Shown here piece after piece: positions 5,527-37,360 of a stretch of 64,000 nucleotides of DNA. Every line of letters starts with the position of its first letter. Position 1 is the first letter of the stretch. The notes under the pieces were generated by a model. That model had not been told where the DNA came from. It was given only the letters and a program-made list of their open reading frames with translations, and searched no databases. The translations under genes and the position numbers were made by a program. Source of the stretch: Escherichia phage vB_EcoM_PTE-Eco09; the sequence record PQ306574.1, one strand, 5' to 3'.

Positions 5527-6126
5527 ATGAAAGAACTTGAATTAAAATACTATGCACACTCACAAATTGGCGTCGAAACCATCTGTGATTTGTGGGTGGC
5601 AATGTATGACGGGTACAATCTCTTAGACCGAGATAACATATTAAAACACGAATTTTATTATGATACCGAAGATCATGCGCTACGTCAAAAAGGAATTTAT
5701 GCACGACTTGACTGTAGAAAATCAGAGATCATGGTCAAAATGGGTGATAATGAATCTGGACTATTCAACCGCGAGGAAATGACATTTTCAAATTGGGATG
5801 AGTTCGTCCATTTTATTGATAGTCTAGGGGTAAACTCCGACTATATCACTGCAATAATGCAAGTAATGACATATCGCAAGTCATTGACTCTAGATATGGG
5901 TTGTGGTATAGTGGAAATGTGCAAAGACACTTTCTATTATGGCAAAGTAGGCGAAGGATTGGGAAACACTGCTCATTATGAACTTGAGTTCGAGTTAAAA
6001 TCAGGTGATGAAAAAGCACTTGACATTATCCGAGAAATGATGCTAGAATATGTTGGTGACGATTTAAGTCCTAGCGAAATTTCAAAAGCTGAACGTGGTT
6101 TTCAATTAATGACGAAAGAGGGTTAA
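5527..6126 (+). CDS. CYTH-like (triphosphate tunnel metalloenzyme) domain protein
   Basis: 199-aa ORF beginning MKELELKYY (ExExK signature) with C-terminal acidic HYELEFELK motif; inserted between rnh and dsbA-like gene relative to T4 order. Confidence 0.45.
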   Translation: MKELELKYYAHSQIGVETICDLWVAMYDGYNLLDRDNILKHEFYYDTEDHALRQKGIYARLDCRKSEIMVKMGDNESGLFNREEMTFSNWDEFVHFIDSLGVNSDYITAIMQVMTYRKSLTLDMGCGIVEMCKDTFYYGKVGEGLGNTAHYELEFELKSGDEKALDIIREMMLEYVGDDLSPSEISKAERGFQLMTKEG

Positions 6127-14926: not shown

Positions 14927-14955
14927 TTGACGCGGGGAGAAATCCCCGCTATAAT
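14927..14955 (+). promoter_or_regulatory. PeSL-type early promoter (stem-loop in spacer)
   Basis: TTGACG 14927-14932, spacer CGGGGAGAAATCCCCGC (palindrome), TATAAT 14950-14955. Confidence 0.6.
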
Positions 14956-16211: not shown

Positions 16212-17378
16212 ATGGGAAATACGGTATTTAATCGTGAACACGTTGATATTATGAATGAACCGATGTTTCTGGGCAGCGGTTTAGGTATCGCTCGTTATGA
16301 CATTCAGCGTCATCAAGTATTTGAAGAATTAATTGAAAAATCTCTGTCATTTTTTTGGCGCCCCGAAGAAATTTCACTTGCAACCGACCGCATTCAATAT
16401 CTTAATATGGGTGACGTTGAAAAGCGTTTCTTTACTGAAAACTTGAAGTATCAGACATTACTTGATTCTATTCAAGGTCGCGCACCGTCCGCAGCATTTG
16501 GTCCAATTGTATCTGATCCAACTCTCGATACATGGTTGCAAACATGGACATTCAGCGAAACGATTCATAGCCGAAGCTATACACACATTATGCGTAACTG
16601 TTTCATTGATCCGGCTAGTGAGTTCGACCAGATCATCGATAACCCTGCTATCATGAAGCGAGCGGAATCTATCGGGAAATATTATGATGATGTTCTTTAT
16701 TGGATTCGTAAGTATGAGAATGCAAAAGAAGATCTCCGCTATTGGGAAGAACGAGACGACCAGACAGCATTAGATGATGCAAGAAGATTTTTTGAAGATA
16801 CAAAACGAGATCTGATGGCTTCGATTTATCTGTGTGCACACTGCGTAAATGCACTGGAAGCAATCCGTTTTTATGTGTCCTTTGCATGTACTTTCAGCTT
16901 TGCCGAACGTGGTTTACTGGAAGGTAACGCGAAGATCATGAAATTTATTGCGCGTGATGAACAACTTCACTTAAAAGGAACACAATACATTATTCGTCAA
17001 TGGCAAACGGGGGTTGATGGTGATGAGTGGAAACAGATTGCGGAAGAACTTGAAGGCGAAGCAACGAAAATCTTTCTGGATGTTGTCGAGCAAGAAAAAG
17101 AATGGGTAGACCACCTATTCGCAATGGGGGCAATTCCTAACCTGTCACCGGAAATTCTGAAAACCTATGTAGAATACCTGGCAGATTCCCGTATGCGTGC
17201 TGCCGGACTGAAAAGCCCGTTTAGTGTTCGTCGTCATCCGTTACCGTGGATGCGTAAATGGTTGAACTCTGACGAAGTACAGAATGCAGCGCAGGAAGTA
17301 GAGATTATGTATCTGGTATCTCAGGTTAATACCGATTTAACAGACGACGACTACAACCGATTCGGGAAATATCTATGA
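16212..17378 (+). CDS. nrdB: aerobic ribonucleotide reductase small subunit
   Basis: 388-aa ORF with class I RNR beta di-iron/tyrosyl-radical-type fold features; position after nrdA. Confidence 0.9.
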   Translation: MGNTVFNREHVDIMNEPMFLGSGLGIARYDIQRHQVFEELIEKSLSFFWRPEEISLATDRIQYLNMGDVEKRFFTENLKYQTLLDSIQGRAPSAAFGPIVSDPTLDTWLQTWTFSETIHSRSYTHIMRNCFIDPASEFDQIIDNPAIMKRAESIGKYYDDVLYWIRKYENAKEDLRYWEERDDQTALDDARRFFEDTKRDLMASIYLCAHCVNALEAIRFYVSFACTFSFAERGLLEGNAKIMKFIARDEQLHLKGTQYIIRQWQTGVDGDEWKQIAEELEGEATKIFLDVVEQEKEWVDHLFAMGAIPNLSPEILKTYVEYLADSRMRAAGLKSPFSVRRHPLPWMRKWLNSDEVQNAAQEVEIMYLVSQVNTDLTDDDYNRFGKYL

Positions 17379-17851
17379 TATATTTTGTCGATTTAGATTT
17401 TACGATCACAGATCCAACGCATCGACTAGCAAAGATGCCAACCGAAAATCTTGATAAAGTCGAGTCATGGATCGAATATAACAAAGCATGTGGGGGAGAT
17501 TCCCCCATTTACGATGTAATTCGTGTTATTAATGCTCTTTCCGACAACGGGCATTTGATTTACATCCTCACAGGACGAAGTTCACATGCTTACATGGAAA
17601 CAATTGATTGGTTAATTTCTAACGGGGTGTGTTTTGATAAAATCTTTATGAGAGGCCGTACCGATTCCCGTAAAGACTATCACATCAAATTAGAGGTAAT
17701 TAAATCCTTTGATAAAGATGAAGTTGTCGGAGTCTTTGAGGATAACCCAGAAGTGATTAAAGTTTTGCGTGAAAATGGTTATCGTGTCTTTGACGTAGGA
17801 AATCACAAAGATAAGACGCGAGCGGATATTGCAAATCACGGTCATGATTAA
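17375..17851 (+). CDS. HAD-superfamily phosphatase (nucleotidase / 3'-phosphatase-like)
   Basis: N-terminal DxDxT motif (FVDLDFTIT), later ILTGRS and EDNPEV blocks typical of HAD hydrolases; start overlaps nrdB stop. Confidence 0.55.
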   Translation: MIYFVDLDFTITDPTHRLAKMPTENLDKVESWIEYNKACGGDSPIYDVIRVINALSDNGHLIYILTGRSSHAYMETIDWLISNGVCFDKIFMRGRTDSRKDYHIKLEVIKSFDKDEVVGVFEDNPEVIKVLRENGYRVFDVGNHKDKTRADIANHGHD

Positions 17852-23940: not shown

Positions 23941-24108
23941 TATGAAAACTATGAATGTAAACATCCACGAAATCCATACCGAAGTATTCACCGAAGAAGA
24001 CCAGTTTGGTGTATGGGTAAATCCTCATTCGATTACTATCGATATTCCTAATGACGATTATGATCCGTTCTCTCTGATTAGCGAGATTAGTTTTAATGAC
24101 TTCTGAAA
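23941..24108 (+). CDS. hypothetical small acidic protein
   Basis: 55-aa ORF with SD; overlaps start of next gene. Confidence 0.25.
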
Positions 24109-24575
24109 TTGATATCTATGCGGGTGGACCTTATCCATCGGGTGAATTGAGTAATTTCAATAAAAGACCATTCCGTCTATTTGGTTGCGATATTAACAGC
24201 ACAGAAGGATTTTTACAGGGGCTAAGATTTAAGAACCCTCAGAGACAAAGAGAAATCTTTTTGATGCACGGTGGCAAAGCAAAAAGAACCGGAAGAACTG
24301 AAAAGATTGAGAATCACCTGTTATATTTTCAGGGTCGCCAGATTCATCGAATGAGTGAGCATTATTACAGACTGGTACATCTGGCATTTGTTACGATGGC
24401 ACGGAATAACCCAGAATTTTGTAAAGCATTACTCGCTACCGGAAATAAGAAATTACGTCATAGTATAGGTGGAACTGATCCGTTAAAGACTATATTGACT
24501 GAATCGGAATTTTGTAGTATCCTCAATGATATTCGTGAACGTTTAACAAAACGAGGTGAAAATGTCAATTCTTAA
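24096..24575 (+). CDS. NADAR-domain protein (YbiA-like)
   Basis: GGPYPSGELSNFNKRPF...STEGFLQGLRF...MHGGKAKRTGR...CKALLATGNKKLRHSIGG resembles NADAR/YbiA signature blocks (SNF, SEHYFQAxKF, LLAT). Confidence 0.6.
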   Translation: MTSEIDIYAGGPYPSGELSNFNKRPFRLFGCDINSTEGFLQGLRFKNPQRQREIFLMHGGKAKRTGRTEKIENHLLYFQGRQIHRMSEHYYRLVHLAFVTMARNNPEFCKALLATGNKKLRHSIGGTDPLKTILTESEFCSILNDIRERLTKRGENVNS

Positions 24576-30783: not shown

Positions 30784-31025
30784 AAAGAAAATTAATTAAA
30801 CGCAATAAGGAATTTCTTAATAACTGCATTAAGGCCGCTAATGGTTGGCCTTTGTGCCTCTTCCTTTATGATTGGTATTCTAAACAATCAGTTGAGGAAG
30901 CACGACACTATAAGAAGATCAGAAAAGAATCACACACAAAACAAGGTCGCATTAACGGACTTTACTTAATGTGGCACGGTAAAGAACCGACTAAAATCTG
31001 TGCTGGGTTAAAGGGTCGTATATGA
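30780..31025 (+). CDS. hypothetical basic protein
   Basis: 81-aa ORF, GTG start overlapping upstream stop. Confidence 0.35.
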   Translation: MKRKLIKRNKEFLNNCIKAANGWPLCLFLYDWYSKQSVEEARHYKKIRKESHTKQGRINGLYLMWHGKEPTKICAGLKGRI

Positions 31026-31738
31026 AACAAAAATTAATATTCTGCAACTTTGACGGATCGGGAATAATGGGGCTAGAATGGGCTAAAGCAGGTCATAAGG
31101 TAGTCTGCTTTAATGCGGATGACGCCGACCACGGTACATACAAAAAGTATAATACCAGATTTGAACATCCAAACATTACCTATGTAAACACATGGATTGA
31201 TTTGAATTGGCTGGAAAGAGCAATGGACCTTGAATGGGGGAAACCGGATATTATCTTTGCATTCCCACCGTGCACCAATTTAGCTGTTAGTGGCGCTGCG
31301 CACTTTGAACGAAAGAAACTAGAACAAGGACCATTGATTCAAGTTCATGATGTAAGGGCAGCTAAAATAACCGCTTATTTGGGTGAATGGCTAGGAGTTC
31401 CCTACATGATAGAGAATCCTGTAAGCGTTATCTCTAGTATGTGGCGTAAGCCTGATTACATGTTCCATCCGTGGGAATATGGCGGTTATTTGCCGGAAGA
31501 TGATAAACATCCTACTTTTCCTGAGTATATCGCCGCCCGTGATATGTACCCGAAAAAGACTTGCTTATGGACCGGACAAGGCTTTATAATGCCAGAAAAG
31601 AAACCGTTGCAGATTAATAAAGGGTACAGTAAACAGCATTCTAAGCTAGGCGGGAAAGGAACGAAAACAAAGACTATCAGGTCACTTACCCCGCGAGGAT
31701 TCGCAAAGGCAGTATTTGAAGCCAATAAGGATCTATGA
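31022..31738 (+). CDS. short DNA (cytosine-5)-methyltransferase-like protein
   Basis: Motif I-like FCNFDGSG, motif IV-like FPPCTNLAVSGA (PC catalytic dipeptide, T instead of Q), motif VI-like IENPVS; only 238 aa, no obvious target-recognition domain. Confidence 0.5.
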   Translation: MKQKLIFCNFDGSGIMGLEWAKAGHKVVCFNADDADHGTYKKYNTRFEHPNITYVNTWIDLNWLERAMDLEWGKPDIIFAFPPCTNLAVSGAAHFERKKLEQGPLIQVHDVRAAKITAYLGEWLGVPYMIENPVSVISSMWRKPDYMFHPWEYGGYLPEDDKHPTFPEYIAARDMYPKKTCLWTGQGFIMPEKKPLQINKGYSKQHSKLGGKGTKTKTIRSLTPRGFAKAVFEANKDL

Positions 31739-32067
31739 TGAGATTGTTTAAGTATTCGCTAACGTCAAATTACGATAAACAAGGTCATTGCATCCGTTGC
31801 CCTGATTGTCATAGCCATAACATCGAAAGCAAGATCACCGATCATATTGATGGACTTTGGTCGCCAGCAAGTGAAATAGAATACTATTGCGCTGATTGTG
31901 GAATTGTAGTAGCATATTGGGCATACGGATCATATGATCCATACTTCCAGATGGGAGAGCGTTCAATCCCTGCGCTTATCTGGAGAATTAAGAACAATAT
32001 CCGGCATTCATGGGATGAGTTCTTAAAAGATATTGATTTACGTGATGACCCATTCAGGAGACTATAA
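31735..32067 (+). CDS. zinc-ribbon protein
   Basis: CIRCPDCHSHN...CADCG Cys4 arrangement; start overlaps upstream stop (ATGA). Confidence 0.4.
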   Translation: MMRLFKYSLTSNYDKQGHCIRCPDCHSHNIESKITDHIDGLWSPASEIEYYCADCGIVVAYWAYGSYDPYFQMGERSIPALIWRIKNNIRHSWDEFLKDIDLRDDPFRRL

Positions 32068-32068
32068 C

Positions 32069-32587
32069 ATGAACCGTTTAACGCCTAAACGCCGTTACTA
32101 TACCAATACTAAAAACTTTGTCATCTCTGTTTATGATGCATGGTTAGAAGATGGCTATATCAACATGAACCCAGATTATCAGCGTCCTTTAGTATGGGAC
32201 ACCGAAAACAAACGTATGTTTATTGAAAACCTGATTAATGATTTTCCGGTTGGTGCTATCGCAATGGCTAAGATTGATGATGGCTCTCGCTATGAGATCG
32301 AAATCGTGGACGGTAAACAGCGTTTAAACGCAATATTCTCCTTTATGAAGGATGAGTTTAGCATTGCTTGTAATGATGATTCTATGTTGTATTACAGTGA
32401 TTTTACGCCAGCAGAAAAGCGACGTTTCCGAAATCTCGGACTACCCGCGATCATGATGGAAGAGAGCACACGAGAAGACCGATTAGAGTATTTCTACAAA
32501 ACAAACTTTTTCGGTGTACCTCAATCGGAAGAACATCGCCAGCATGTGATTGCATTATTGCAAGATGAACAATTAAAAAATAACTAA
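32069..32587 (+). CDS. DUF262 / ParB-like nucleotide-binding domain protein
   Basis: NPDYQRPLVW and VDGKQRL (DGQQR-type) motifs typical of DUF262/ParB-Srx fold; ATG 1 nt after upstream stop. Confidence 0.5.
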   Translation: MNRLTPKRRYYTNTKNFVISVYDAWLEDGYINMNPDYQRPLVWDTENKRMFIENLINDFPVGAIAMAKIDDGSRYEIEIVDGKQRLNAIFSFMKDEFSIACNDDSMLYYSDFTPAEKRRFRNLGLPAIMMEESTREDRLEYFYKTNFFGVPQSEEHRQHVIALLQDEQLKNN

Positions 32588-32594
32588 AAAGTTG

Positions 32595-32623
32595 TTGACA
32601 GGGGATCGGTGATCCCCTATAAT
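32595..32623 (+). promoter_or_regulatory. PeSL-type early promoter
   Basis: TTGACA, spacer GGGGATCGGTGATCCCC (identical to 26546 copy), TATAAT. Confidence 0.6.
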
Positions 32624-32659
32624 GCACACATACCGAAACGAACTACTAAGGAGTATCAA

Positions 32660-32872
32660 ATGGCTAACATCGAAATCATCATTACCGACGTAACTTATGA
32701 CCGCATTAACGAAATCGGTACTGCATTACTGGAAGATGGAACAACTCGTACCATCAACTACGCAGAATACGTTGAAATGCGTGGTTGTATTAAACGAGTA
32801 GGAAAATATATCCTGATTGAAAAAGACTATTCAGGATACACCTTAGAGCAATTGCTTGATGGTGCATTATAA
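32660..32872 (+). CDS. hypothetical small protein
   Basis: 70-aa ORF (MANIEIIITDVTYDRINEIG...) after cassette; followed by terminator. Confidence 0.4.
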   Translation: MANIEIIITDVTYDRINEIGTALLEDGTTRTINYAEYVEMRGCIKRVGKYILIEKDYSGYTLEQLLDGAL

Positions 32873-32878
32873 TAAAAA

Positions 32879-32900
32879 GGGGCGTTAAGCCCCGTTTTCA
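32879..32900 (+). terminator. intrinsic terminator
   Basis: GGGGC-GTTAA-GCCCC hairpin followed by GTTTTCA. Confidence 0.6.
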
Positions 32901-32939
32901 TAAATATAGGTTTATAGGTTATCAACTAGAGGATATAAA

Positions 32940-34991
32940 ATGTTTAACTTAGAAATCGACGATCTAATGATTGAATCTTTCGAGAAATGGCTGTTGACGG
33001 AAGAGGAAGAAAACTTTGGCAGTATTGCTCCTGTACAGTGCTTAAAGCCTAAGCAGAATCCTAAACAGCTTTTTGCAGTACAGACACGCGATAAAGATGT
33101 GATTGTCCGTCTTTGCAACTTCACCAACAAAACACCTAAAATCATTCGTATGGGTGACAAGACCGCACATGTTGTACTGTGCGAAATGAACAAAAGCGGT
33201 CGTATTGTACAGCTTAAAAATGGTCTAGGCGATAACCCGATTGCAGTTATGTCAAGTGCTTTTGATGTGGTTATGGAAACAGCCCGTAAAGCGCAATTAG
33301 ACGCTGTTATGTTCCGTTTTAACGTATCCCGCATGAAAGGTAAGACCGAACTGGTTAAGCGCGTTATAGAGCGTTTGGTGCGTCGTACACCGAAGTTTGA
33401 AGTATTCCAGCAGGAAGTAATGACCAGCAAAAAGATCGCTTTAGTTGTTGTCAAGCGTCGCGGTATGGCGATTGATAAGATTAAAGGGATTAAACTTGAT
33501 GATTCCTTGTTCACTAAAGTAGAAAGTGATTTAGGTGATCGCTGGGTATCTAAGGCTACTGGTGAATCTCTGACTAAAGATGAGGCATATGCGGCTAGTC
33601 TTGTGTCAGAAGAAGAACGAAACGCGGAAGCGGAACAACGCGTAGCGGCTAAATCTCGTTTGACTAAAGAAGAAATGCTGAAAACTCAAGCGACCTATAA
33701 CAGCGACTATGTGAATCATCCAGAAAAAATTAATCTTAAACCGGAAGAAGATATCACCGAAGCCGAACCTAAGAAACAGTTTAATACTCTGATTGATCGT
33801 CAAGCCTTAGAACGTTCAACCGCCCGTTCTCTGAATGACTGGACAAGTGATATTATCACTCGCTATGGTTTCATGCGTACTATTTTTGAAAGCGAAGCCG
33901 ATGCAAAATACGCAGTAAGCGAACTGGTAAAAGTTCAGGATCAATATGATCCGTTGTCTGCGGAAGTTATCGCAGCATCAATCAAACGCTTAAAAGAAAT
34001 CATGAGCGAGGAAGTATTCGAAAACAAGATCACCGCCCGGGCAATGGATCGAGTAGACCAGTCTATGCCAGCAGATGTAAAAGCTGAAATGCTGCGTAGT
34101 CATATCACCCAGATTAAAACCGATGCCCTACGTAATGTTGCGTCCGGTATGTTTGAAGCAATTGCTAGCAACATGGGTGAAATGATGGCAGATATTGATC
34201 TTGATCTGCCAGGCGCGGAAGGTTTTGTGTTGAGCGAATATGCCGATGCAGCATACATCAATATGAACAACTTCCTAACTGATCGTAAGCTGGAAGAGTT
34301 TGAAGGCATCGCAGATCCAGAAGAATTGGTCAAGATGTGCGATGCACTGGATAATGCCTTCTCCAACTATGGCGTTAAACTTGATCCGGGTACTATTCTG
34401 TATCGTGGTATGGACTTCCGGTCGCAAATGTGGGAAACTGCACGTAAGCAAAAAGCGTTTTACTTTAAAAACTATGTGAGCACTTCCCTTGCACCTAACA
34501 TTTTTGGCGGCTGGAATGCAAACGTGGCTAGTGCCGTTGCTGGTGTTGATTCTATGGCTGGCTCTCGCGGTGAAGGTGGCGCTAATGTTGCTTTCTCCAT
34601 TGCTGGCGCGGAAAACATCCCTGTATTGCCAGTAGGTAACAAAGCATTTGCTTACAAAGAATGCGAGATTTTACTTCCTCGCGGTGTTGTGTTATCCTTT
34701 GATACGGTAACTCGTGCTACGGCATCGACGGATTCACAAGAAACTTATTACATTGAGGCACATATTATGAACAAAAATGAACTGGCAGCATTACAAGAAT
34801 CTGGCGAGATGATCGCGGACGGTGATGCATTCATCCGTGAAGGTGTTATTAAACCTGCTTCTGACCTGTCTTTCTCCAGCTTTATTACCGAAGCTAAAAC
34901 CGAACGTAAGAAAGCAGATAAGGCAACTCTACGTCAGCTTATCGCTGATCTGGTATCTGTAGACGCAATGCCAGATAAATTTAAAATGTAA
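32940..34991 (+). CDS. alt: ADP-ribosyltransferase Alt-like
   Basis: 683 aa (T4 Alt about 682); C-terminal ART triad R (LYRGMDFR), STS (YVSTSL), ExE (KECEILLPRG); position next to baseplate gene 54. Confidence 0.8.
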   Translation: MFNLEIDDLMIESFEKWLLTEEEENFGSIAPVQCLKPKQNPKQLFAVQTRDKDVIVRLCNFTNKTPKIIRMGDKTAHVVLCEMNKSGRIVQLKNGLGDNPIAVMSSAFDVVMETARKAQLDAVMFRFNVSRMKGKTELVKRVIERLVRRTPKFEVFQQEVMTSKKIALVVVKRRGMAIDKIKGIKLDDSLFTKVESDLGDRWVSKATGESLTKDEAYAASLVSEEERNAEAEQRVAAKSRLTKEEMLKTQATYNSDYVNHPEKINLKPEEDITEAEPKKQFNTLIDRQALERSTARSLNDWTSDIITRYGFMRTIFESEADAKYAVSELVKVQDQYDPLSAEVIAASIKRLKEIMSEEVFENKITARAMDRVDQSMPADVKAEMLRSHITQIKTDALRNVASGMFEAIASNMGEMMADIDLDLPGAEGFVLSEYADAAYINMNNFLTDRKLEEFEGIADPEELVKMCDALDNAFSNYGVKLDPGTILYRGMDFRSQMWETARKQKAFYFKNYVSTSLAPNIFGGWNANVASAVAGVDSMAGSRGEGGANVAFSIAGAENIPVLPVGNKAFAYKECEILLPRGVVLSFDTVTRATASTDSQETYYIEAHIMNKNELAALQESGEMIADGDAFIREGVIKPASDLSFSSFITEAKTERKKADKATLRQLIADLVSVDAMPDKFKM

Positions 34992-35007
34992 TTTTAAGAA
35001 ATAATGG

Positions 35008-35036
35008 TTGACTCAAACGGGGACTAGTTTTATACT
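35008..35036 (+). promoter_or_regulatory. PeSL-type promoter doubling as terminator hairpin for alt
   Basis: TTGACT, spacer CAAACGGGGACTAGTTT, TATACT; stem AAACGGGGACTAGT/ACTAGCCCCGTTT followed by TCTG. Confidence 0.5.
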
Positions 35037-35068
35037 AGCCCCGTTTTCTGTTATATGGGAGGCTTAAA

Positions 35069-35893
35069 ATGTTCAAGAAATTACAGGATTTTCGTATTTC
35101 AGAAGAATCACGCGAATCAATGATGGAACGTATGGATAATTACATCGAAACATATGACATTGAGGGGATTAATGGTTACATGATCACTGAGATGATCAGT
35201 GATCAGATTAACTTTGATGATTATGTGAAGGTTATCCGCTTCCTTGAGCGCGAGACACAAGATTATGGATTTGTCAAGAAAATCATTAATGTGATGTATG
35301 AAGTACACTCCGAAGAATTTGGAGATAATGTATTCAAACATTACAAACATAACAACATAACCCCAGCAGAATATAATGCAATCTGTGATTATGTGTCTGA
35401 ACAATACGAATGGGTAAATGGTGCTCTCTTAGGGGAAGAAGACATGACCGATGAGATATCAGAGATTGTCGATTTGATGGATTGCGTCATGGATAAAACC
35501 GAAAAGTTAAACGGTACTCTTTATCGAGGTCAACATCTTGACATTCAGACAATAGAGCGTATCATTGAAGATAAGGAGTTTACCTTTAAAAACTTTGTAT
35601 CTACCAGCATGACACCGATCATATTTGGAGGATGGCTATCAAACAGCACTAGCCTTTATTGTGAGAATCGATATGAATCAATGACCGGAAAGATGCAACA
35701 TTCTTGTAATGTATCATGGGTAATTGACGTAAAAGATCATAAAGGTTTTGTTGTTGGGTCAATTGCATGGAACCCTTGCGAATGTGAAGTAATTTTACCG
35801 CGAGGGACTTGCGTCAAGGTAAACGACGTAGTAGAATCTTTCGGCGATGAGAATCGTAGACAATTTACAATTTTCGGTGAGGTGACTAAATGA
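35069..35893 (+). CDS. second ADP-ribosyltransferase (Alt/Mod-like paralog)
   Basis: 274 aa; R (LYRGQHL), STS (FVSTSM), ExE (CECEVILPRG); catalytic region similar to C-terminus of upstream Alt. Confidence 0.7.
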   Translation: MFKKLQDFRISEESRESMMERMDNYIETYDIEGINGYMITEMISDQINFDDYVKVIRFLERETQDYGFVKKIINVMYEVHSEEFGDNVFKHYKHNNITPAEYNAICDYVSEQYEWVNGALLGEEDMTDEISEIVDLMDCVMDKTEKLNGTLYRGQHLDIQTIERIIEDKEFTFKNFVSTSMTPIIFGGWLSNSTSLYCENRYESMTGKMQHSCNVSWVIDVKDHKGFVVGSIAWNPCECEVILPRGTCVKVNDVVESFGDENRRQFTIFGEVTK

Positions 35894-36402
35894 AAATGAT
35901 TAAACTGATTGGTCTTGCGGCTTTGGTTGCTATGCTTAATGGGTGCGCTGTACATGAACTGGCACTGGCATCTAAGAATACACACGAGTTTGTACGGTCA
36001 TGTGAACGATGGCAGAAAGAGTCACGTTTTCCATTTAATAGCGTTGAAGATTGCGTGATTGACTACCTTGAAAAGAAAGACGCCTCATTACAGCGTTTAG
36101 GTCGTCAACCGGAATCAGCAGAACAGATCGCAAAGATTAAGGCAGATAAAGAAGCAGAGAAGAAACGCATTTACGAATATTATTATGGTCGTGAAAATTC
36201 AATTGAAGAAATGAATCGCAAAGCAATGGAAGATGCCGACCGTCGTAGACAATTTGGAGTATGTGTAATCGGGACGGAAGCAGCATATCAAGATGATCTT
36301 AATAGTGCGTATGATAACGGAGACTACGAAAAAGTTAAAATGCTGCGGTCTAAAGAATACCGTTATAAGCTACGTAAACAATGCGAACAGTTATTAAAAT
36401 AA
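35890..36402 (+). CDS. putative lipoprotein
   Basis: Signal peptide with lipobox-like LNGC (MKMIKLIGLAALVAMLNGC), charged remainder. Confidence 0.5.
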   Translation: MKMIKLIGLAALVAMLNGCAVHELALASKNTHEFVRSCERWQKESRFPFNSVEDCVIDYLEKKDASLQRLGRQPESAEQIAKIKADKEAEKKRIYEYYYGRENSIEEMNRKAMEDADRRRQFGVCVIGTEAAYQDDLNSAYDNGDYEKVKMLRSKEYRYKLRKQCEQLLK

Positions 36403-36403
36403 T

Positions 36404-36432
36404 AAAAGGGGGTATAATCCCCCTTTACATTT
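36404..36432. terminator. bidirectional terminator between convergent genes
   Basis: GGGGGTATAATCCCCC hairpin flanked by AAAA upstream and TTTACATTT downstream. Confidence 0.6.
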
Positions 36433-37360
36433 AGAATAACCTAGTAATAGAGTTGACTATCCTACCACCAACACCCTGTAATCTTGACAATGCACTACCA
36501 GCAAAGGTCAACGAACTTTTTTTACCCTCACCAACAGTATTTTGAATAAGATTTATTGCCTTATCCTCAATCCATTCTCGCGCGGCTTGCTCTCCTACTG
36601 CACCAGTTTGCATAGAACGATATGCGAAAGTAACATCGAATGTTGTGATCTCGTTGTTATTTTCATAACTCAATTCAGGAGAACTAACACCAACTGGAAT
36701 ACATCCACTAAACATCATAATTGTATGTGGTACACCCATTCGGTTATGTAAGTTAACCTGAATATCGGCTTCAACGTCAACAGGAAGCGCACGAAGCCCT
36801 GTAACGGGGTCTTCTACTGAGTTAACCCAATCCTGCATCGCACGGTAATTTGATGCGCTAGCGTCCATTCTAAAGCTCAACACAATCGGATCAAAATCAC
36901 GTCCGGTAATTCGAATGTTTGGCGCATTGTGGTTACGGTCCATTTCATAATTCAATCTGTTTTCTGGAACCTTAACAGCATACACCAGAAGACCGCTTGT
37001 CTTATATGCCATATTGAACCAATCCATGACATATGTACCAACTTCAAATTGCCCCAAAAGAGATTGAACTACTCGTGATGACATTGCACCCAACAAATAT
37101 TTTTTAACACCGGACGAGCTAACAGCTTTACGCACACCACCAATAGCAAGATTTGCTACCGCGTCAGTATAATCCCCACGAGTAATACCAAAATAATCAT
37201 TTAGTTTACCTGGTATAATATCATATACAGCACCACCAAAATTTTCTAGAATTTGCTGCGTCTTGCTACTAGGAACGGTGGCAAACGCCACCGAAAATAG
37301 ATTAGAACGCTGGAAGTCTAGATTAGCGGCTTGTTCATTGAAATCGTTTAAATCAAACAT
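36431..37360 (-). CDS. 54: baseplate tail tube initiator (gp54-like)
   Basis: 309 aa (T4 gp54 about 320); first gene of the 54-48-29-28-27-51 block adjacent to alt; assignment mainly by synteny and size. Confidence 0.65.
   Translation of the reverse strand: MFDLNDFNEQAANLDFQRSNLFSVAFATVPSSKTQQILENFGGAVYDIIPGKLNDYFGITRGDYTDAVANLAIGGVRKAVSSSGVKKYLLGAMSSRVVQSLLGQFEVGTYVMDWFNMAYKTSGLLVYAVKVPENRLNYEMDRNHNAPNIRITGRDFDPIVLSFRMDASASNYRAMQDWVNSVEDPVTGLRALPVDVEADIQVNLHNRMGVPHTIMMFSGCIPVGVSSPELSYENNNEITTFDVTFAYRSMQTGAVGEQAAREWIEDKAINLIQNTVGEGKKSSLTFAGSALSRLQGVGGRIVNSITRLF

Follow-up and report, generated by a model that had tools for sequence, protein, structure and literature searches.

The stretch of DNA analysed here, 64,000 nucleotides from Escherichia phage vB_EcoM_PTE-Eco09 (PQ306574.1; hereafter the window), contains two adjacent genes for ADP-ribosyltransferases (ARTs): a full-length alt and, directly downstream, a gene of 274 codons that we refer to as the short ART. 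The locus is the alt region of a member of the genus Krischvirus, where two mono-ADP-ribosyltransferases of the R-S-ExE type (Alt/VIP2/C3 clade), both predicted to modify arginine, would probably be split in time by a composite terminator-promoter lying between their genes. Megablast assigns the window to this genus of RB49-like, T4-type coliphages, with phage AV108 as the closest relative (99.0% identity over 3.7 kb), and shows the locus to be common to 58 Krischvirus records. The neighbours are likewise T4-type, with the baseplate and tail genes 54, 48 and 29 converging from the right and a long series of small early open reading frames (ORFs) on the left. Every contig that carries the short ART, including those of relatives down to 41–47% identity, has the gene order alt, short ART, an ORF of 159–170 residues, and gene 54. 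Both ART genes have counterparts in the RefSeq entry for RB49, where RB49p184 is described as "alt, Alt-like RNA polymerase ADP-ribosyltransferase" and RB49p183 as "similar to C-terminal part of T4 Alt". The two genes and their main landmarks are the following:

32940-34991, plus strand: alt, 683 residues, from the ORF list; equivalent to RB49p184
34212-34769, plus strand: catalytic domain of Alt, approximately residues 425-610, with R489 (LYRG), S514-T-S516 and E574-C-E576
35057-35062, plus strand: Shine-Dalgarno sequence GGGAGG of the short ART, read from the sequence, with 6 nt between it and the ATG
35069-35893, plus strand: short ART, 274 residues, equivalent to RB49p183; N-terminal helices and a complete R-S-E catalytic domain

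The 683-residue ORF is a full-length orthologue of T4 Alt, including the N-terminal domain. It matches the PHROG family of Alt-like ARTs (phrog_802) over profile positions 2–674 of 674 (E 9e-180), passes the Pfam cut-off for ADPrib_exo_Tox (PF03496; 37.2 bits against 23.4), and aligns with T4 Alt over 695 residues at 26% identity (BLASTP, E 7e-60). The N-terminal fragments alt.-1 and alt.-2 of T4 also match it by BLAST, and its synteny with genes 54, 48 and 29 on the opposite strand reproduces the T4 arrangement. The short ART passes the same Pfam cut-off with 59.8 bits over residues 82–266, and matches phrog_15144 (ADP-ribosyltransferase) with an E-value of 3e-197. When compared directly with the Alt of the window, it aligns only within the catalytic core (37% identity over 109 residues, E 1e-16), and in a profile match its residues 7–268 correspond to positions 329–602 of the 674 in the Alt profile. 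What it is without, relative to Alt, are the N-terminal ~330 residues, which in relatives form a PF26846-type domain, and a C-terminal tail of ~75 residues, which holds the pattern ...DGD...ETG...MP-KF and is kept by all full-length Alts and by the C-terminal halves of second copies in T-even phages. The R / S-T-S / E-x-E motifs are found alike in the Alt of the window, in T4 Alt and in the short ART, where they comprise R153 (LYRG), S178-T-S180 and E238-C-E240. An earlier interpretation of the same letters, made with no database searches (the sequence-only reading), had proposed that both ORFs contain this triad and that the second resembles only the catalytic part of Alt, and the alignments and profile matches agree with it on both points.

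The structural predictions point the same way. The AlphaFold2 model of the short ART (pLDDT 81.8, pTM 0.79) was matched by Foldseek to Vis, C3bot1/2, Certhrax, CDTa and iota toxin, all with a probability of 1.0, E-values of 2e-10 to 1e-8 and target-normalised template modelling scores of 0.6–0.73. The sequence itself found only marginal matches among the PDB chains (E 0.07–0.4), to a PAAR-linked ART toxin and to SpvB. Profile searches of Pfam, PHROG and NCBIfam assigned the short ART to no other family, and both the predicted fold and the motifs of the NAD site are intact. It is an Alt paralogue that keeps only the helical linker and the catalytic domain, with an intact active site. The E-x-E form of the ADP-ribosylating turn-turn (ARTT) motif goes together with an arginine acceptor, as is established for the C3/iota/VIP2 clade and for T4 Alt. 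Because both the short ART and Alt have this form, arginine is the predicted acceptor for the two of them. The loop that follows the STS motif in the short ART (PIIFGGW..NSTSLYCENRY, residues 181–208, encoded by 35609–35692) is near-invariant in its family and partly common to Alt; it is probably the phosphate-nicotinamide or substrate-recognition loop, and a candidate specificity determinant.

A protein search showed that the short ART belongs to a small family of proteins of 272–288 residues, with identities of 98, 83, 63, 48, 44 and 45%. No homologue down to 41% identity departs from the catalytic residues, and within the family Y108, N117 and L120, which belong to the NAD-site helices, do not vary either. 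Among cultured phages, an orthologue occurs in 58 records, all of them from Krischvirus and with at least 96% identity. The ratio of non-synonymous to synonymous substitution (dN/dS) is 0.026 in comparison with RB49, and 0.105 in comparison with the relative that is 83% identical. By these measures the gene is under strong purifying selection, appears functional and is not a relic. One could nevertheless see in the short ORF a decaying and functionless remnant of a tandem duplication of alt, similar to alt.-1 and alt.-2 of T4, since the site downstream of alt holds duplicates in varied states in other phages: N-terminal fragments in T4, a full-length alt.-2 in RB14, and, in a T-even metagenomic contig, a second copy split into ORFs of 273 and 415 residues. 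Such a remnant would not be expected to show dN/dS values of 0.03–0.10, a stable length together with invariant catalytic residues, a conserved promoter, Shine-Dalgarno sequence and terminator of its own, a confidently predicted ART fold, or a presence in all 58 of the Krischvirus records found. We give this explanation almost no weight, and regard it as already effectively refuted.

Rather than a remnant, the short ART looks like an old and separate enzyme. The catalytic domains of the Alt-type proteins form four deep clades that are 25–32% identical to one another, consisting of T-even Alt, T-even second copies (of the RB14 alt.-2 type), Krischvirus Alt and the Krischvirus short ARTs. With this degree of divergence between clades, the duplication that separated alt from the short ART is ancient, and the short ART is as distant from the neighbouring Alt as it is from T4 Alt. 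A recent tandem duplication of alt was also considered and was rejected, as identity between the catalytic domains of these neighbours is just ~25%.

The second line of evidence comes from the 77 nt that separate the two genes (34992–35068), which can be written as TAA-ttttaagaaataatgg-TTGACT-c-AAACGGGG-A-CTAGT-TTTAT-ACTAG-CCCCGTTT-tctgttatat-GGGAGG-cttaaa-ATG. Two overlapping features are found in this spacer:

35008-35036, plus strand: sigma-70-type early promoter TTGACT-17-TATACT (10/12), with the -35 hexamer at 35008-35013 and the -10 hexamer at 35031-35036, from a promoter scan
35015-35049, plus strand: hairpin AAACGGGG(A)CTAGT-TTTAT-ACTAGCCCCGTTT followed by a T-run, with a bulged stem of 13 bp, from RNA folding

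The hairpin proper (35015–35046, then TTTTCT) has a predicted energy of -18.9 kcal/mol and a z-score of -6.1, and none of 200 shuffled sequences was as stable. The -10 hexamer of the promoter sits in its loop and 3′ arm, and the stretch upstream of the promoter is rich in A and T (16 of 19 bases at 34989–35007). We compared this element across six lineages; the synonymous sites of their coding sequences have reached saturation (pS ~0.75–0.78). In all of them the TTGAC of the -35 box, the entire -10 hexamer and the 17-nt spacing are identical, and the invariant blocks of the spacer comprise TTGAC, AACGGGG, AGTTTTATACT and CCCCGTTTTCT. Between the window and the divergent relative L007, for instance, there are only 6 differences in the 42-nt core of the spacer at a pS of ~0.78. 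All six lineages form the same bulged hairpin, with energies of -17.8 to -18.9 kcal/mol, and the pair next to GGGG:CCCC is C:G, T:A or A:T depending on the lineage, that is, the changes are compensatory. The spacer element is thus far more conserved than the surrounding synonymous sites. Elsewhere, a promoter-like match inside the short ORF (35538, TTGACA-16-TATCAT) was discarded as a chance occurrence, the count for the region being 13 compared to 10.7 +/- 3.0 in shuffled sequences.

Overlaps of this kind are known as promoter-early stem-loops (PeSLs), which were defined in RB49 and phi1, and for other members of which both promoter and terminator activity was shown experimentally (Arbiol et al. 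2010, PMC2839356). A stem-loop lying between the -35 hexamer and the -10 hexamer and overlapping the latter is the commonest arrangement (Fig. 2 legend, PMC2839356). The sequence-only reading had placed a PeSL-type promoter within the hairpin that follows alt, and the TTGACT-17-TATACT match overlapping 35015–35046 is just such an element: the spacer has the PeSL architecture, and promoter and terminator activity are predicted for it. In the mechanism that we propose, the hairpin would act as a terminator or attenuator, stopping transcripts that come through alt, and host RNA polymerase would start at ~35043, some 7 nt past the -10 box and inside the 3′ arm of the hairpin. As a consequence of this start position, new transcripts would be without the 5′ arm, could not form the hairpin and would escape termination. 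A single element could thereby both terminate incoming transcription and start new transcription. Our own scan of the window also found 12 further intergenic sigma-70 promoters with a G/C-rich hairpin between the -35 hexamer and the -10 hexamer or over the latter (-35 starts at 14927, 17899, 18178, 18459, 18684, 26540, 26934, 27168, 28731, 30218, 30463 and 32595). These stand in front of small ORFs and share the flanks AAAAAGTTGTTGACA ... CATCGAAACGA; they are the classic PeSL family of the hyperplastic regions of RB49-type phages.

On the other side of alt, two further signals bear on when this gene is expressed:

32879-32898, plus strand: terminator upstream of alt, hairpin GGGGC-GTTAA-GCCCC (32879-32893) followed by GTTTT, from a terminator scan
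32899-32906, plus strand: late-promoter-like octamer CATAAATA, 34 nt before the ATG of alt, matching 7/8 of the T4 late consensus TATAAATA

The hairpin before alt is kept in RB49 and in G37-3, where it is annotated as a terminator, and it has a positional equivalent in T4 and in L007. A terminator upstream of alt was previously found in five of six T4-like genomes (Nolan et al. 2006). In the window it ends the preceding early transcription unit, which has its promoter at 32595. The octamer aligns column by column with TATAAATA upstream of T4 alt, and L007 has AATAAATA in this place; within the window CATAAATA occurs at 2 sites only, and the canonical TATAAATA precedes the obvious late genes. 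Because the case consists of a 7/8 match and of the analogy with T4, we regard late transcription of alt as only plausible. Alt would then be transcribed late from a (C/T/A)ATAAATA element, as in T4, would be packaged by means of its N- and C-terminal parts, which are missing from the short enzyme, and would be injected with the DNA. The T4 protein is known to modify the alpha subunit of host RNA polymerase (PMC9503650).

Downstream, the short ART is followed by one more gene and a terminator:

35890-36402, plus strand: ORF of 170 residues, the ATG of which overlaps the stop codon of the short ART (ATGA), from the ORF list; phrog_16112, a family of unknown function
36405-36426, both strands: hairpin AAAGGGGGTATAATCCCCCTTT, a bidirectional terminator that separates the ART operon from gene 54, a convergent late gene, from the terminator scan and the annotation of G37-3

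The product of the 170-residue ORF is a predicted lipoprotein, with a signal peptide, an invariant L-x-G-C motif and four further invariant cysteines. All six lineages have the gene in this place, and G18-C19 does not vary among them (in the relatives it lies at L001:7090-7575, L007:6828-7307, L012:2683-3186, L013:1333-1821 and L014:2712-3224), and its counterpart in phage W115 is annotated as 'putative lipoprotein'. The protein diverges fast, the allele of the window being 30% identical to that of RB49, and DNA similarity to RB49 and to most Krischviruses stops at ~35950. It may be a surface or superinfection-exclusion factor. The lipoprotein gene is probably co-transcribed with the short ART, and the two would make up an early operon that ends at the 36405–36426 terminator.

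If so, the short ART would be at work on arginines of host proteins, adding ADP-ribose to them, as early as the first minutes of infection. We infer that it is not packaged, since it is without the ~330-residue N-terminal domain and the ~75-residue C-terminal tail of Alt. Its targets would add to those of the injected Alt and of a single ModB-like enzyme encoded elsewhere in the genome. The complete RB49 genome, when searched with T4 Alt, ModA and ModB, with both proteins of the window and with the family profile, has exactly three ART genes, namely alt, the short ART and the ModB-like RB49p014, which adjoins srd. A tentative suggestion, to which we would give somewhat less than an even chance, is that the short ART is derived from Alt, acts early without being packaged and has targets of its own, and that it either fills the slot of ModA in T4, given that Krischvirus has only one Mod gene, or neutralises a host defence in the way that T4 Alt does for Mokosh type I. 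Were this true, the conserved terminator-promoter would enforce a late/early split between two paralogous enzymes, and one ART fold would be used twice per infection cycle, by injection and by early synthesis.

The same genes can also be read as two late ones. The short ART would then be a second capsid-packaged enzyme, with read-through from alt as the main route of its expression and an overlapping promoter that is minor or inactive. The gene does lie directly downstream of alt, on the same strand and near the late baseplate genes, the promoter matches at only 10 of 12 positions, and many phage ARTs are packaged in the head (PMC9503650). However, the N-terminal domain and the conserved C-terminal tail are absent, a strong hairpin with a T-run stands between alt and the short ART, and the hexamers of the promoter and their spacing have been kept in spite of synonymous saturation, which is unexpected for a non-functional promoter. 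Overall we find this course of events unlikely.

Several points weigh against a locus of two enzymes split in time. The 10/12 promoter of the short ART is without the conserved flanks of the main PeSL family in the window, and the spacer is unconfirmed as one of the 51 PeSLs that Arbiol et al. counted in RB49, ORF183/184 going unmentioned in their main text. The presumed late promoter of alt, with its 7/8 match, is non-canonical and unlike the octamer of the clear late genes, and the short ART might be expressed by late read-through. In the structural model, residues 181–208, the loop after STS, have low confidence (pLDDT ~50). More generally, the timing and packaging of both ARTs are extrapolated from sequence signals and from T4, and a literature search found no functional study of any Krischvirus ART.

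The sequence-only reading had also pointed to a NADAR-like gene in the window, and suggested that the phage encodes both the writing and possibly the erasing of ADP-ribose. Pfam scans of 20 candidate ORFs located this gene:

24096-24575, plus strand: gp30.3/AdfN-like protein; PF08010 (Phage_30_3), E 9.5e-38, 129.6 bits (cut-off 36)

Against the NADAR family itself (PF08719) it scores 16.7 bits (E 0.0093), below the cut-off of 35.1, and a phmmer search for such a gene with an approximate sequence of E. coli YbiA as the query gave no match. In T4, gp30.3 is AdfN, a NADAR-type anti-DarT1 DNA ADP-ribosylglycohydrolase that is necessary and sufficient to overcome DarTG1 (PMC11257639), a role confirmed by transposon sequencing (bioRxiv 10.1101/2025.11.20.689424). 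The suggestion is thus literally correct, in that writers and a possible eraser are both encoded, and fails in the functional link to the marks made by Alt, since the homologue acts on the DNA marks of DarT1. A circuit in which gp30.3 removes Alt-type ADP-ribose from host proteins might be imagined from the presence of all three genes inside the same 64 kb and from the relationship of the Phage_30_3 family to NADAR ADP-ribosylglycohydrolases (PMC11257639). It is very improbable, given that gp30.3 acts on ADP-ribose on DNA and not on protein arginine (PMC11257639), that the gene lies 8.4 kb upstream of the ART locus, next to the ligase gene and in another transcription unit, and that the same linkage of gp30.3 and ligase is seen in T-even phages whatever their alt copy number. 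By homology, then, the gp30.3-like gene would be an eraser of a mark written on DNA by the host, and not a partner of the Alt-type protein ARTs. RB49 also has, at a position outside the window (NC_005066.1, 50040–50495), tk.4, a macrodomain gene recently named adfM (anti-DarTG2) in T4, so that the genus has both known erasers of DNA ADP-ribose besides its three ART writers.

Other genes of the window were identified in passing. Two genes upstream of alt, an ORF of 184 residues (32033–32587, plus strand), hypothetical in the RB49 annotation, carries the N-terminal domain (DUF262/ParB-like; PF03235, E 7e-20) of the GmrSD type IV restriction enzymes and no other part of them. The gene at 31022–31738 (plus strand) is a homologue of RB49p189, called 'DNA methyltransferase' in RefSeq, and has no Pfam match at E <= 0.01. 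Two early genes on the plus strand, one for a CYTH-domain protein (5527–6126, E 8e-7) and one for a stand-alone PNKP-type HAD phosphatase (17375–17851, E 3e-13), are candidates for a role in nucleotide or RNA-end metabolism. No Rfam family matched within 32500–36600 at E <= 0.1, and in NCBIfam neither the two ARTs nor gp30.3 found a family.

Much of what is described here has precedents, and the pair of genes is already known. The short ART is the same gene as RB49 ORF183 (RB49p183, NP_891754.1; PHROG 15144), with 99.3% amino acid identity, the same length of 274 residues and the same place between alt and gene 54. There is no substantive difference between the two, and the phage of the window, with AV108 as its nearest relative, is a further Krischvirus isolate or contig. 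The annotation and publication of RB49 ORF183 as an alt paralogue go back to 2003–2006, when RB49ORF183c was listed as a duplicated paralogue of alt (Nolan et al. 2006), and the description of the PeSL class dates from 2010. As the literature and RefSeq already contain both genes, their paralogy and the class of promoter-terminator, no new category is proposed. Our additions are modest: the short gene appears to be old, intact and under purifying selection, the terminator-promoter is conserved, a conserved lipoprotein gene probably completes the operon, and the NADAR-like gene is moved to the conflict over DarT1 and DNA. Phage ARTs are of renewed interest through RNAylation by ModB, the action of Alt against Mokosh and the conflicts of DarT and NADAR, and Krischviruses are used in phage therapy. 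Functional studies of host takeover or counter-defence could reasonably turn to a second Alt-type enzyme that is strongly conserved across a genus and probably has an early promoter.

Compared to the PeSL cassettes described previously (Arbiol et al. 2010; Comeau et al. 2014), the spacer between alt and the short ART has the same succession of parts: the upstream stop codon is followed by an AT-rich stretch, and next come a promoter of the sigma-70 type, a stem-loop over the -10 box, and then a Shine-Dalgarno sequence and start codon. Unlike most PeSLs of the window it is without the shared flanking sequence, unlike those that precede ORFans it stands before a conserved gene of predictable function, and unlike those that are visibly shuffled it has been conserved in place, vertically with its gene, in six lineages. 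The bacterial toxins of PF03496 (C3, Vis, Certhrax and iota/CDTa) have the same fold as the short ART and the same active-site architecture of R, S-T-S and (E/Q)-x-E. The short ART differs from them in that it is a phage protein, only 15–21% identical, which has an additional helical region at the N-terminus and, following STS, a long loop that is conserved.

Among phage enzymes, T4 Alt, a capsid-packaged arginine ART, shares with the Alt of the window its synteny, upstream hairpin and late-promoter-like octamer at an overall identity of only 26%. With the short ART it has the catalytic half in common (31% identity over 181 residues, E 9e-23), and the short ART differs from it in being without the N-terminal domain and the C-terminal tail and in having a sigma-70 promoter instead of a late one. 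T4 ModA and ModB are small and early ARTs, and the short ART is likewise small, predicted to be unpackaged and probably early, which would give it an analogous role after the injected Alt. However, neither BLAST nor phmmer found a significant match between the short ART and T4 ModA, T4 ModB or RB49p014, and it groups with the Alt-type domains. As there is no detectable relationship in sequence, and a separate ModB-like RB49p014 exists, the short ART would be an analogue of ModA/ModB at most, not a member of that family. The idea that it substitutes for a missing Mod system was rejected, since RB49 has the ModB-like p014 and lacks only a second, ModA-like copy. According to recent work, T4 Alt contributes to the evasion of Mokosh type I and variants of Alt cannot replace one another, and for this reason a role in target diversification or counter-defence is plausible for extra Alt-type enzymes.

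The closest parallels are second copies of alt in other phages (RB14 alt.-2, Bp7 alt', 44RR ORF187/188 and the T4 remnants alt.-1/alt.-2), which are likewise derived from alt and lie immediately downstream of it. About half of 1217 matching Straboviridae records have two Alt-like places, and duplicates of alt recur at the site downstream of it. One example, in a T-even-like metagenomic contig (L009:3086-7248; GAIO21-1 scaffold_11), has an alt of 697 residues followed by a split second copy, the 273-residue ORF of which has the N-terminal domain only and overlaps by 4 nt the 415-residue ORF with the ART domain. Whether a duplicate with a frameshift or a genuine arrangement of two genes, it is intermediate between RB14 alt.-2 and the T4 remnants. 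The copies of the T-even type are full-length, split or reduced to N-terminal fragments, whereas the Krischvirus copy is a stable gene for the catalytic half only, in a deep clade of its own.

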